43,634 nucleotides of DNA from an uncultured Candidatus Saccharibacteria bacterium (GTDB lineage: Bacteria; Patescibacteriota; WWE3; 9FT-COMBO-53-11): positions 1 to 43,634 of the forward strand of contig CAYPTJ010000032.1 of assembly GCA_964413845.1 (NCBI GenBank), in the 5' to 3' direction. Positions within the stretch are counted from its first letter, which is position 1, and each line of letters starts with the position of its first letter. The notes under the pieces were generated by a model. The model had not been told where the DNA came from. It saw only the letters and a program-made list of their open reading frames with translations, and ran no database searches. Shown in pieces: positions 8,888-11,813 of this stretch. Position numbers and translations under genes: made by a program.

Positions 8888-10312
8888 ATGAAACCAAAAT
8901 CCAGGTTGATCGTTAGCGCCTTAGGCGCTTTGGTCGTTTTAATATTGTTGGAGCCGTTGGCGGTGGAAGCGGCCGAAGCCGAGTATCGGCTTTGTCCGAC
9001 TGACAGCACCTGTACGATCGGCGAGTTTTTGTATGACGACAACTACACGCCTGTCCCGCCGGCCAACGCCAGCTGTACCCTCACCATCAGGAAACCCGAC
9101 GGTGGCCTCCTTTTCGACCCACCGCCCGCAATGAGCGAGAGCGCCGACGGCTGGTATTACTACGACTTTGATACCACCGGCAAATCCGAAGGGCTCTACC
9201 GCTCGACCATGTGTTGTGATGTTGGCACCGAACATCTGTGTTTGGACAAGAGTTTTACCATCGGCCCCGACGTCGCGGGGGCGGTCTGGAACGCGCCTCC
9301 CTCAAGCTACAACACTCCCGGCACCTTCGGGTGGTATTTGCAAAATGCCACTGGCTTGGCCCAGAACATTTGGAGCTACACATCCCGAAGTTTGACGGAC
9401 TTCGGCTCTTTAGTAGCGGATATTTGGAACAACACCATCCGCAGTTTAACTACGCGACAAATCAGCCCCACCGAGCACATCGCCCGGGAAGAAGAGCATT
9501 GGACAACCCGCTTCGCGGGCGGCGGCGAGGTTTTGGCCGGCAAAACCTACCGGGCCAAACTTTGGGTTTTGAATTTCGAAACCGAGCTGGCTGACGCCGT
9601 CGCCGACCCCACCTATACCATCTATGACGCAATGAGAAACGTCATTGACTCCCCGCCCCCGACCGGCACCATGACAAAATTAGCCGGAACGACCGGAATT
9701 TACGAGCTCACCTACATCGTTCCCACCAACGCCACCGGCGGGCGCTGGGAGACGATCGTGGACGTCGACGTCGATGGCGGCGGAACAGATATCCAAGACG
9801 GGAGCTACTGGGAGGTAGAGAGTTCCCCAGCCGAGGTAAAGATTAATGCGATCACCGATAATACCGTCCCTTCGATCACCGCCAACGTGACGATTAAAAA
9901 CGAGGGAGGAAGCTGGTATGAGTATAAGTATGCCTACTGTGTCGTCGCCCAGGAAAACAATACCTGCGGCGGGGGGGATGATGTCTTTTACAAGTCGGGA
10001 TCCAAAAAACTCAACGCCGGCCAAAGCTGGACGACCAACTTCAATGCCACCGTACCCAACCCTGGGCAGTATTGGTTCAAGGTGGTGGTCCAGTGGGGAA
10101 CGGAAAAATCGGGGGCATCTCAGGTGTTTATGGCCAGCAAAGTAACCTGCTTGGGCGATTACAACTCTGATGGTTATGTTAATCTCACCGATTTCTCGAT
10201 CATGCTTTACTATTGGAAGAAGTACAGCCCAACTCACGACCTTTCCGGCGATGGTTATGTTAATTTGACCGATTTCTCGATCATGCTTTACTATTGGGGT
10301 AAATGCCCGTAG
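8888..10312 (+). CDS. Secreted protein with a Sec-type signal peptide and a C-terminal duplicated dockerin module.
   Basis: N-terminus MKPKSRLIVSALGALVVLILL. C-terminus has DYNSDGYVNLTDFSIMLYYW and DLSGDGYVNLTDFSIMLYYW (DxNxDGxVNxxD calcium-loop pattern), encoded by two nearly identical ~50-nt segments. Confidence 0.75.
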   Translation: MKPKSRLIVSALGALVVLILLEPLAVEAAEAEYRLCPTDSTCTIGEFLYDDNYTPVPPANASCTLTIRKPDGGLLFDPPPAMSESADGWYYYDFDTTGKSEGLYRSTMCCDVGTEHLCLDKSFTIGPDVAGAVWNAPPSSYNTPGTFGWYLQNATGLAQNIWSYTSRSLTDFGSLVADIWNNTIRSLTTRQISPTEHIAREEEHWTTRFAGGGEVLAGKTYRAKLWVLNFETELADAVADPTYTIYDAMRNVIDSPPPTGTMTKLAGTTGIYELTYIVPTNATGGRWETIVDVDVDGGGTDIQDGSYWEVESSPAEVKINAITDNTVPSITANVTIKNEGGSWYEYKYAYCVVAQENNTCGGGDDVFYKSGSKKLNAGQSWTTNFNATVPNPGQYWFKVVVQWGTEKSGASQVFMASKVTCLGDYNSDGYVNLTDFSIMLYYWKKYSPTHDLSGDGYVNLTDFSIMLYYWGKCP

Positions 10313-10328
10313 GGACGGGAGAAGGAAT

Positions 10329-11813
10329 ATGAAACTTGAAGCTAAAAACAAATTTAAAAAACTCACTCTTCTCACACTCACCATTTTGCTTGGCATTTTC
10401 CTGCTGTTTTCCTTCTTGTTGCCCGTCGCCGCTGCAGGGGCAAGGCTCTTTCTCTCTCCCTCCTCGGGAACCTACTATGCCGGATCCTATCTCTCGGTCG
10501 AGGTACTGGTGAATACGGGAGGGAATGCGACCAACGCCTACAAGGCCGTTCTCGCCTACCCGACCGACAAATTGGAAGCCGTTTCTGTCTCCTCGGGGGG
10601 ATCAATCTGTTCTCTTTGGATCACGCAAACCAAAAGTACCTTGGAATGCGGGACGCCCACACCCTACAAAGGTACGACTGGACGGATCGGAACCATCACC
10701 TTCCTCGTTAAGGCCGCGGGGACGGCCACGGTGAGTATCGCCAACGGTCAGGTTAAGAAAGCGGATGGGGCAGGAACGGAGATCTTGAGCGTGCGGGACT
10801 CGGCCTCCTTTAATCTCCAAGAGCCCCCCGCCGGCGTTCCGGTGATCTCCTCCTCCACCCACCCCGATCAGAACGGTTGGTACCAAAGCCGGACAGCTGA
10901 GTTTTCTTGGAACAGCCCCGAAGGTACAGATGGCTTTTCCTACCTTTTAAGCCAAAAGCCGAACGAAGTCCCGGACGATACCTCCGAAGGGGCAGAGACG
11001 AGCAAGACCTACGAAAACCTGGCGGACGGGACGTGGTACTTCCACCTCAAAGCAAAAACCACCGAGGCCACACCTGCCGGCGGGCAGGGCTGGAGCTTCA
11101 CCAACCACTTCCGCATCCAGATCGATAGCGAGCCACCCGAGGATTTTGAGATTGTCTCCGATCCGCCCGCCGATCGGGTTTTCCGCGCTCCCCTCCTCTC
11201 TTTTGCCGCGACGGACAAACTTTCCGGGGTTGACCGCTGCGAAATCTCCTTCGACGGAGGCGAGTTTGAAGTAACCATCAGCCCTTATCGGTTTAATCGG
11301 ATCAGAGGCGGAATTCACGAGGTTGTCGTCCAGGCCGTGGATCAGGCGGGAAACATTAAAGATTCCCGCCTAACTCTTAGCGTCATCGGGGTTCCCTCCC
11401 CAACCATCATCCGTCCGACCGAGGGAGAAAATATTCCTCTCTTTGCACCGCTAGGTATTAAAATTACAACAGTGGCGCCGGGGACGGTTGAGCTCCTCCT
11501 TGACAGTCAGCTCTTTGCCACTTTGGATGGCAGCATTGGATCTGAACTTGAACATACTTATCGAAAGATTCTCTCCCCGCGGGGACACAAACTCTCGGCA
11601 GTTTTTGTGAACGCGGAGGGAATCGAAAGCGCGCCGGCGGAAGTCAACTTCAAAGTGAATCCTGGATCGGTTTACCTGCTCGGGTTTGTGGTCCCCGGCT
11701 ACATCTTCTACAGTGTTCTCTTAATTGCTGTTTCTCTACTGGTAGTCCTCTTTATAAAATGGAGGAAAAGAAGGAAAAAGAAGGCGATCGAAGAATCGAA
11801 GAATCGATCTTGA
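10329..11813 (+). CDS. Membrane-anchored surface scaffold: signal peptide, cohesin-like domain, Ig-like modules, C-terminal TM anchor and a short basic tail.
   Basis: LFLSPSSGTYYAGSYLSVEVLVNTGGNATNAYKAVLAYPTDKLEAVSVSSGGSICSLW...GRIGTITFLVKAAGTATVSI...ADGAGTEIL is a cohesin-type pattern. Followed by SSSTHPDQNGWY. TM YIFYSVLLIAVSLLVVLFI, then KWRKRRKKK. Confidence 0.7.
   Translation: MKLEAKNKFKKLTLLTLTILLGIFLLFSFLLPVAAAGARLFLSPSSGTYYAGSYLSVEVLVNTGGNATNAYKAVLAYPTDKLEAVSVSSGGSICSLWITQTKSTLECGTPTPYKGTTGRIGTITFLVKAAGTATVSIANGQVKKADGAGTEILSVRDSASFNLQEPPAGVPVISSSTHPDQNGWYQSRTAEFSWNSPEGTDGFSYLLSQKPNEVPDDTSEGAETSKTYENLADGTWYFHLKAKTTEATPAGGQGWSFTNHFRIQIDSEPPEDFEIVSDPPADRVFRAPLLSFAATDKLSGVDRCEISFDGGEFEVTISPYRFNRIRGGIHEVVVQAVDQAGNIKDSRLTLSVIGVPSPTIIRPTEGENIPLFAPLGIKITTVAPGTVELLLDSQLFATLDGSIGSELEHTYRKILSPRGHKLSAVFVNAEGIESAPAEVNFKVNPGSVYLLGFVVPGYIFYSVLLIAVSLLVVLFIKWRKRRKKKAIEESKNRS

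Follow-up and report, generated by a model that had tools for sequence, protein, structure and literature searches.

A probable non-cellulosomal cohesin-dockerin gene pair of a Patescibacteria bacterium and its conserved gene neighbourhood

The DNA analysed here, referred to as the window, is a 43,634-nt stretch of contig CAYPTJ010000032.1 (GenBank assembly GCA_964413845.1, positions 1 to 43,634) from an uncultured Candidatus Saccharibacteria bacterium, placed by GTDB in the WWE3 lineage of Patescibacteriota. On its forward strand it carries two adjacent genes: gene 1 (8888..10312), encoding a 474-amino acid (aa) secreted, dockerin-bearing protein without an enzyme domain, and gene 2 (10329..11813), encoding a 494-aa predicted type-I membrane protein with an N-terminal cohesin domain. 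A second cohesin gene (13241..15037) is located further downstream. An initial annotation, made from the sequence alone, had proposed that the products of genes 1 and 2 form a docking pair at the cell surface. Our analysis supports this interpretation at the sequence level: the gene pair is probably a non-cellulosomal cohesin-dockerin surface-display cassette of a bacterium of the Patescibacteria (candidate phyla radiation, CPR), in which, we infer, the dockerin of one protein is bound by the cohesin of another.

The gene pair and its modules

Both open reading frames (ORFs) have the boundaries originally assigned to them and are separated by a 16-nt spacer (10313..10328, + strand), which contains a Shine-Dalgarno (SD)-like sequence, GGGAGAAGGA, just 5' of the ATG of gene 2. 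A scan of this gap revealed no terminator-like site. Because of the short gap, the SD-like sequence and the lack of a terminator, genes 1 and 2 are likely co-transcribed. The product of gene 1 starts with a predicted Sec-type signal peptide (residues ~1-30; 8888..8977, + strand; MKPKSRLIVSALGALVVLILLEPLAVEA/AEA), with a hydrophobic stretch at residues 3-21, a helix at residues 6-21 in the AlphaFold2 model and a putative cleavage site. Alignments with relatives of this protein begin at residue 1-2.

The dockerin module of gene 1 spans residues 421-474 (10148..10309, + strand) and was distinguished by a Pfam match, a DNA repeat and the helices of the AlphaFold2 model. The search with PF00404 (Dockerin_1), proposed earlier as a check, gave 26.0 bits for residues 422-466, above the gathering threshold of 22.9, and the match covers positions 1-52 of the 57-position model. 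The module is composed of two segments, DYNSDGYVNLTDFSIMLYYW (residues 424-443; 10157-10216, + strand) and DLSGDGYVNLTDFSIMLYYW (residues 451-470; 10238-10297, + strand), which are joined by a linker of 7 aa and are identical at 17 of 20 residues. The claimed duplication is therefore present, and so is the near-identical coding DNA, at coordinates close to those first given (10169-10216 and 10250-10297, 46 of 48 nt the same); both mismatches fall in a single Leu codon. The calcium-ligand positions 1, 3, 5, 9 and 12 are occupied by D424/N426/D428/N432/D435 in the first segment and by D451/S453/D455/N459/D462 in the second. In the AlphaFold2 model each calcium loop is followed by a helix (residues 433-441 and 460-468) with a predicted local distance difference test (pLDDT) value of ~90, giving the two tandem EF-hand-like loop and helix segments of ~22 residues by which dockerins are recognized. 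No dockerin-loop motif beyond these two was detected in a six-frame motif scan of the whole 43.6-kb window. Searches of PDB sequences with gene 1 returned type I dockerins as all of the best matches, at weak E values (0.02-1), and relatives of gene 1 carry a precomputed PF00404 annotation in the database. The C-terminal module of gene 1 is a genuine type-I-like dockerin.

Family dockerins were extracted from 75 loci with a hidden Markov model (HMM), since a regular expression for the segments caught only 9 loci. In both segments of these 75 dockerins the pattern D-x-N-x-D-x-x-V-[ND]-x-x-D-F-S-I-[LM]-L-x-x-W is kept. The two segments of a module share 11-17 of 20 residues (median 13), and the window's copy (17/20) is the most symmetric of the set. 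Internal symmetry of this kind is a hallmark of type I dockerins with a dual binding mode. The two segments in the window use the same codon at 15 of their 17 identical residues; in nine dockerins for which this was measured, the window's among them, the codon is shared at 76 of 130 identical residues. Because of the near-identical DNA and codon use of its two segments, the window's module suggests a recent gene conversion or re-duplication of the dockerin segment in this lineage.

The cohesin domain of gene 2 (residues ~35-167; 10431..10829, + strand) was identified with a family HMM, AlphaFold2 and Foldseek, and scored 163 bits with the HMM. A word-indexed search for homologs of the cohesin region (151 aa) yielded 2 matches only and was replaced by an exhaustive HMMER search, in which a profile seeded from the two paralogous domains of the window retrieved 5048 cluster representatives (E<=1e-3). 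One protein recovered with this profile (P0127; E 2.5e-41) contains nine Pfam cohesin modules (275 bits) together with Big_7, fn3 and a C-terminal dockerin, which is the canonical scaffoldin architecture. The Pfam cohesin model PF00963 matched 22 of 31 sampled family domains at E<=0.01 (best E 2.5e-9), and a profile built from 31 family sequences gave the ScaC cohesin 4uyp_A (E 0.0011) as its best match in PDB, with 5g5d (E 0.014) and 5m2o (E 0.49) also found. Relatives in the database carry a precomputed PF00963 annotation and NCBI names such as [quoted passage not shown]

The AlphaFold2 model of gene 2 residues 34-172 (pLDDT 93.3; predicted template modelling score 0.86) is all β and shows the flattened jelly-roll β-sandwich characteristic of cohesins. 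In a Foldseek search of PDB with this domain, the best 20 matches were all cohesins (probability 1.0), with template modelling scores (TM-scores) of 0.64-0.75. The best structural matches were 6kgf_C (E 1.3e-8) and 2vn5, and the cohesins found include the non-cellulosomal 2vo8, 2jh2 and 2w1n of Clostridium perfringens and 2xdh of Archaeoglobus fulgidus. The sequence identity of the domain to known cohesins is only 9-17%. Because transitive homology and the predicted fold agree, we consider the N-terminal domain of gene 2 to be a divergent but genuine cohesin.

Other architectures were also observed in the cohesin family (P0127, P0132, P0147, P0311, P0316 and P0317). They include (i) a scaffoldin-like protein of 2276 aa in which nine cohesins are combined with Big_7, fn3 and a dockerin at the C-terminus, (ii) a fusion of three cohesins with a NosD/β-helix domain and (iii) 241-aa proteins with one cohesin-like domain and a dockerin, which might pair with themselves or form chains. 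These uncultured bacteria may thus possess cohesin-dockerin assemblies of larger size.

The remaining topology of gene 2 agrees with the initial description, i.e., a signal-peptide-like segment, immunoglobulin (Ig)-like modules and a C-terminal transmembrane anchor. The stalk (residues ~170-445; 10836..11663, + strand) comprises about three Ig-like/fn3-like domains with weak matches to Big_13 (E 0.002) and Big_7 (E 0.005) and a score of 39.9 bits with an OmpL47-type model (cutoff 40); the corresponding protein encoded at 13241..15037 passes both Big_7 (36 bits) and the OmpL47-type model (44 bits). By hydropathy, the anchor and basic tail (11667..11810, + strand) consist of a hydrophobic segment at residues ~447-478 followed by KWRKRRKKK (KWRKRRKKKAIEESKNRS). 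Because of the positive-inside rule, gene 2 is predicted to encode a type-I membrane protein that carries the cohesin at its distal tip and has its basic tail in the cytoplasm.

The second membrane-anchored cohesin protein (13241..15037, + strand), which the initial annotation had missed, is 55% identical to the product of gene 2 (BLASTP E 3e-177). Its cohesin domain (~13385-13807) scored 175 bits with the family HMM; PF00963 gave no match at E<=1. A transmembrane-like segment was found at residues 463-481. As a partner of the dockerin, this paralog is equally plausible. The gene is listed with a TTG start, and an internal ATG at 13316 (MKKVLRSF...) gives a canonical signal peptide, MKKVLRSFLAFALILSLSLSRIFA; this ATG is probably the true start and the listed TTG wrong. 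Unlike gene 2, the paralog has a ~100-aa highly charged, coiled-coil-like and presumably cytoplasmic tail ending in RRRRR, which hints at an intracellular partner.

The passenger region of gene 1 was modelled by AlphaFold2 as three β-sandwich domains and a linker (pLDDT 81.8 for the whole protein). The first domain (residues 33-126; 8984..9265, + strand; pLDDT ~90-96) contains Cys and was found in only a subset of relatives. It is followed by a predicted helical linker of low confidence (~residues 129-200; 9272..9487, + strand; pLDDT 43-52) with repeats of the form W-x4-R-x-L-T, which are the previously noted IWSYTSRSLT (residue 161; 9368-9397, + strand) and IWNNTIRSLT (residue 179; 9422-9451, + strand). 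Relatives have 0-8 copies of this repeat, compared with ~0.001 expected per shuffled protein. Domains 2 and 3 (residues 206-311 and 315-417; 9503..10138, + strand) are macroglobulin (MG)/CARDB-like and form the conserved core of the family, in which C351 and C360 are invariant and a GGGDD loop nearly so.

In a Foldseek search the gene 1 model matched arrays of MG domains in α2-macroglobulin, C3 and TEP1 (E ~5e-13), with an overall TM-score of only 0.18-0.2; the similarity is thus one of individual domains. An archaeal S-layer protein was also among the matches, the last β-sandwich domain has a weak CARDB match (E 9e-4), and relatives of gene 1 carry PF01835 (MG2). No enzyme domain was recognizable in gene 1 by Pfam scan and no catalytic fold by Foldseek. 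The Pfam scan gave no glycoside hydrolase or carbohydrate-binding module (CBM) family match in gene 1 and, as originally stated, no glycoside hydrolase among the window ORFs of >=120 aa. An α2-macroglobulin-like protease trap was considered for the passenger and rejected: it has neither a thioester domain nor a bait region, no A2M or thioester family was matched in the Pfam scan of gene 1, and only three β-sandwich domains are present.

Conservation of the cassette in Patescibacteria

The relatives of gene 1 form a large family in Patescibacteria. When one genome per species was scanned, at least 567 stretches encoding them were found, and the best 80 of these, plus a few further related loci, were analysed after removal of duplicates. 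The closest named relative is that of candidate division WWE3 bacterium CSP1-7 (65% identity).

All 74 dockerin-bearing loci, whose gene 1 relatives share 31-65% identity with the window's protein, encode a cohesin-family domain downstream on the same strand, starting 24-428 nt after the dockerin (median 104). There are two downstream cohesin genes in 63 of the 74 loci, three in 5 and a single one in 6, some of the latter being cut by contig ends. Nine relatives have no dockerin, and in all nine loci no cohesin domain was found in the scanned flanks (up to 6 kb). Homology of these nine proteins to gene 1 runs to residue ~417, which is the dockerin boundary. Beyond it, 5 of the 9 have a long tail with transmembrane-like segments of its own and 4 a tail of ~115-140 aa without such segments. 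Because the tails of the dockerin-less proteins begin at this boundary and more than half bring their own transmembrane segments, the dockerin appears to occupy the slot of an anchoring module. In those five loci, where cohesin genes are absent, it would have been exchanged for an intrinsic membrane anchor. Co-occurrence, co-absence and anchor swapping strongly support a functional link between dockerin and cohesin, from which we infer that the two modules bind.

The dockerin-less relatives (L027, L033, L048, L049, L068, L069, L071, L074 and L077) are much larger (up to ~1900 aa), have long coiled-coil-like regions rich in Ser/Thr and carry as many as six W-x4-R-x-L-T repeats. The C-terminal end of one of them (L027) appears SH3b-like, and PF08239 (SH3_3) is found in many relatives at the protein level. 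Several alternative modules for anchoring or extension are apparently joined to the conserved two-domain MG core.

Co-divergence within the cassette was examined by Mantel tests on 69 cassettes. The divergence of the dockerin correlates more closely with that of both cohesins (r ~0.53) than with that of its own passenger domains (r = 0.445). With the passenger controlled, the dockerin-cohesin correlations are 0.40 and 0.46 (n=69; p 0.001), and with each cohesin controlled for the other they are 0.34 and 0.33. We regard this co-divergence as supportive and not decisive, because shared phylogeny was only partly removed.

Genes surrounding the cassette

Upstream of and divergent from gene 1, the minus strand encodes a 165-aa protein with four transmembrane-like segments (8067..8564) and no significant Pfam match. 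A gene of similar size (165-173 aa) occupies the same position and orientation in loci L001, L003 and L004; whether it belongs to the cassette is uncertain.

Two genes lie between gene 2 and the second cohesin gene, and both point to the twin-arginine translocation (Tat) pathway. The first (11981..12808, + strand) encodes a 275-aa protein with four N-terminal transmembrane-like segments, an internal twin-arginine motif after them (QRRDFLKRIGSVGLGLLAY; QRRDFLKRIG...) and a C-terminal domain; it has no Pfam or NCBIfam match. This gene is syntenic with the cassette, and RR[DA]FLK is conserved in its orthologs of L001, L003, L004 and L007. The second gene (12962..13114, + strand), which comes after it, encodes a 50-aa TatA (PF02416, 49.3 bits, cutoff 21) and is found at the same position in L003 and L004. 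In many Paceibacteria loci, shorter homologs of the twin-arginine region plus the downstream domain are encoded no more than 6 kb from the cassette; in L005 the dockerin gene is directly preceded by TatC and TatA genes. It seems that Tat components and a putative substrate of this pathway accompany the cassette. In WWE3-like loci, an sCache protein gene and a third cohesin gene lie between TatA and the last cohesin gene; the window has neither at this place.

In the WWE3-like loci L001, L003 and L004, the region ~4-8 kb upstream of the dockerin gene contains very large genes without annotation (770-935 aa and ~830 aa), along with genes for a Y1 transposase (PF01797) and a NosD/β-helix protein. 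Its counterpart in the window has response regulators and a histidine kinase instead. Other scanned genes of the window are CPR-type housekeeping genes (PGK, GAPDH, MurJ, MurB, FemAB, LytR and two-component systems). Surface proteins with fn3/purple-acid-phosphatase-N-like domains are predicted at 1..2160 (+ strand) and 25072..25980 (- strand); the former fuses CarboxypepD_reg to a C-terminal AhpC/TSA-redoxin domain, an unusual combination.

Proposed surface tethering and comparison with known systems

In the proposed mechanism, the product of gene 1 would be exported by Sec and consist of three β-sandwich domains, a W-repeat linker and a symmetric calcium-binding dockerin at its C-terminus. 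The product of gene 2, also exported by Sec, would be held in the membrane by its C-terminal helix and basic tail, while its stalk of about three Ig-like domains would project the cohesin through the wall, away from the membrane. The dockerin would fold with Ca2+ and plug into the cohesin of gene 2 or into the paralogous cohesin encoded at 13241..15037, and gene 1 protein would thereby be tethered non-covalently at the cell surface. The passenger would most likely be a structural or adhesive surface component and not an enzyme.

Several observations weigh against this interpretation. PF00963 scored gene 2 at 14.9 bits (full protein) and 18.0 bits (domain alone), below the cutoff of 24.1, and searches of PDB sequences with gene 2 alone or with a 4-sequence profile found no cohesin. 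The initial annotation had made its claim depend on the domain scoring as a cohesin; by the Pfam threshold alone it does not, but we judge this measure too narrow because the fold result is a cohesin. The Pfam part of the claim fell, and the cohesin assignment itself stands on the family profile and the predicted fold. The dockerin linker is unusually short, and the module stops before the end of its Pfam model. The 80 loci were partly retrieved by a dockerin-derived peptide pattern, which biases the presence of the dockerin and leaves its association with cohesin unaffected; many of them belong to Paceibacteria related to one another and are only partly independent, and the Mantel test has the phylogenetic limit given above. 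Finally, one dockerin faces two cohesin proteins in the window and up to three in related loci, so the dockerin may have another partner than the product of the adjacent gene.

This last point leads to the alternative that the dockerin binds the second cohesin protein (13241..15037), or bridges both cohesins at once through two near-identical faces. It would fit the presence of two or three cohesin genes downstream of a lone dockerin gene in 68 of 74 loci, the higher score of the second cohesin on the family model, the equal correlation of dockerin divergence with both cohesins, which survives mutual control, and the symmetry of the dockerin segments in the window and across the family. We nevertheless consider it rather unlikely: gene 2 holds the adjoining, probably co-transcribed slot in every locus, 6 of the 74 loci have only one cohesin (some being truncated, as noted), and in characterized type I dockerins symmetry provides alternative, not simultaneous, binding modes. 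A broader version of the bridging idea is more doubtful still. It sees the cassette as an ancient Patescibacteria-wide module, Tat parts included, whose symmetric dockerin would link two different membrane-anchored cohesin proteins into a non-covalent protein layer, or into the host-attachment apparatus, of these ultra-small, episymbiotic cells. Cohesin-dockerin chemistry would then be a core building principle of the cell envelope and not a device for enzyme recruitment.

The two modules could also each bind something else, such as host glycans or proteins or peptidoglycan, and be neighbours through a shared envelope or adhesion pathway. A dockerin-domain protein of a Saccharibacterium was speculated to target host glycans (Wang et al., 2023, PMC10633639), the window's cohesin is divergent and under the Pfam threshold, and Tat components with a putative substrate also travel with the cluster, which shows that a conserved neighbourhood need not mean binding. 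Against this stands the observation that the dockerin module, and not just the gene carrying it, predicts cohesin genes (present in 74 of 74 loci with it, absent from 9 of 9 without it). In 5 of the 9 loci that lost the dockerin an intrinsic membrane anchor was gained, the cohesin family includes canonical architectures with multiple cohesins and a dockerin, and dockerin and cohesins co-diverge. Independent binding of other ligands is improbable in our view. A minimal cellulosome-like enzyme display, with an unrecognized polysaccharide-degrading or -binding module as passenger, is hardly credible: dockerins are classically attached to carbohydrate-active enzymes, and the β-sandwich domains could be CBMs or the acidic GGGDD loop and disulfide pair a ligand or calcium site, but neither gene 1 nor the scanned ORFs gave a glycoside hydrolase or CBM match, the passenger folds match MG/Ig-type arrays and not enzymes, the sole dockerin of the window is on gene 1, and each scaffold has a single cohesin and no cellulose-binding module, in keeping with the non-cellulosomal system first proposed.

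A non-cellulosomal surface-display cassette is therefore the reading that we retain. Little is known about how CPR/Patescibacteria construct their surface and attach to hosts, and their envelope proteins mostly lack annotation. The cassette, which recurs in at least 74 of the 80 best species-level loci, gives a concrete, testable candidate pair of interacting surface proteins in this opaque group. The natural swap of anchors, between a dockerin with a separate membrane-anchored cohesin protein and an intrinsic transmembrane tail, provides an evolutionary argument for a role as a tether. An orthogonal affinity pair could also be made of the short symmetric dockerin and the small cohesin. The cassette leaves the concept of cohesin-dockerin systems unchanged, since pairs outside cellulosomes have already been found in all three domains of life, and the existence of the modules is not surprising, because the domains of relatives are already called automatically in public databases. 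What this analysis adds is how strongly the genes are coupled in genomes, the argument from the anchor swap and how widely the cassette occurs among CPR bacteria. No description of the cassette was found in the literature on cohesin or dockerin in Patescibacteria, CPR, WWE3 or Katanobacteria, and as a CPR-wide conserved unit it appears undescribed in the literature searched.

An essential dockerin-domain protein, SEML1_0315, was reported in Southlakia epibionticum (Wang et al., 2023, PMC10633639). It was considered as a member of the same cassette and rejected on its size and neighbourhood, being a 927-aa Ig-domain protein whose gene is flanked by those for tRNA-Glu and a response regulator and has no cohesin gene beside it. 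The passenger resembles bacterial α2-macroglobulin/MG and CARDB surface proteins in that its β-sandwiches match MG arrays; it differs from the former in having three β-sandwiches only and no thioester domain, bait region or receptor-binding domain.

The best structure and profile matches come from cellulosomal type I complexes and anchoring scaffoldins (C. cellulolyticum 2vn5, C. acetobutylicum 6kgf and A. cellulolyticus ScaC 4uyp). As in dual-binding-mode type I dockerins, the dockerin of gene 1 is internally symmetric, and as in cellulosomal anchoring scaffoldins, a cell-anchored cohesin would capture a secreted dockerin protein. In contrast to cellulosomal scaffoldins, the cassette is anchored by a transmembrane helix and not by sortase or S-layer homology (SLH) domains, has a single cohesin per protein, lacks carbohydrate-active enzymes and CBMs, and has a cohesin of low identity to known ones.

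The closest known kind are the non-cellulosomal pairs, represented by the toxin/glycosidase complexes of C. perfringens and by 2xdh of A. fulgidus; such pairs have been surveyed (Peer et al., 2009, FEMS Microbiol Lett 291:1, cited as reference 42 of PMC10066038). The cassette shares with them a type-I-like dockerin with two calcium-loop/helix repeats, a single cohesin with a 9-strand jelly-roll, and the absence of a CBM scaffoldin and of any tie to cellulose degradation. It differs from them in (i) a passenger without a recognizable enzyme domain, built as an MG/CARDB-like β-sandwich array, (ii) a short dockerin with its 7-aa linker, (iii) a cohesin placed at the tip of a C-terminally membrane-anchored stalk, and (iv) a gene set of one dockerin gene and one to three cohesin genes that is fixed across Patescibacteria.

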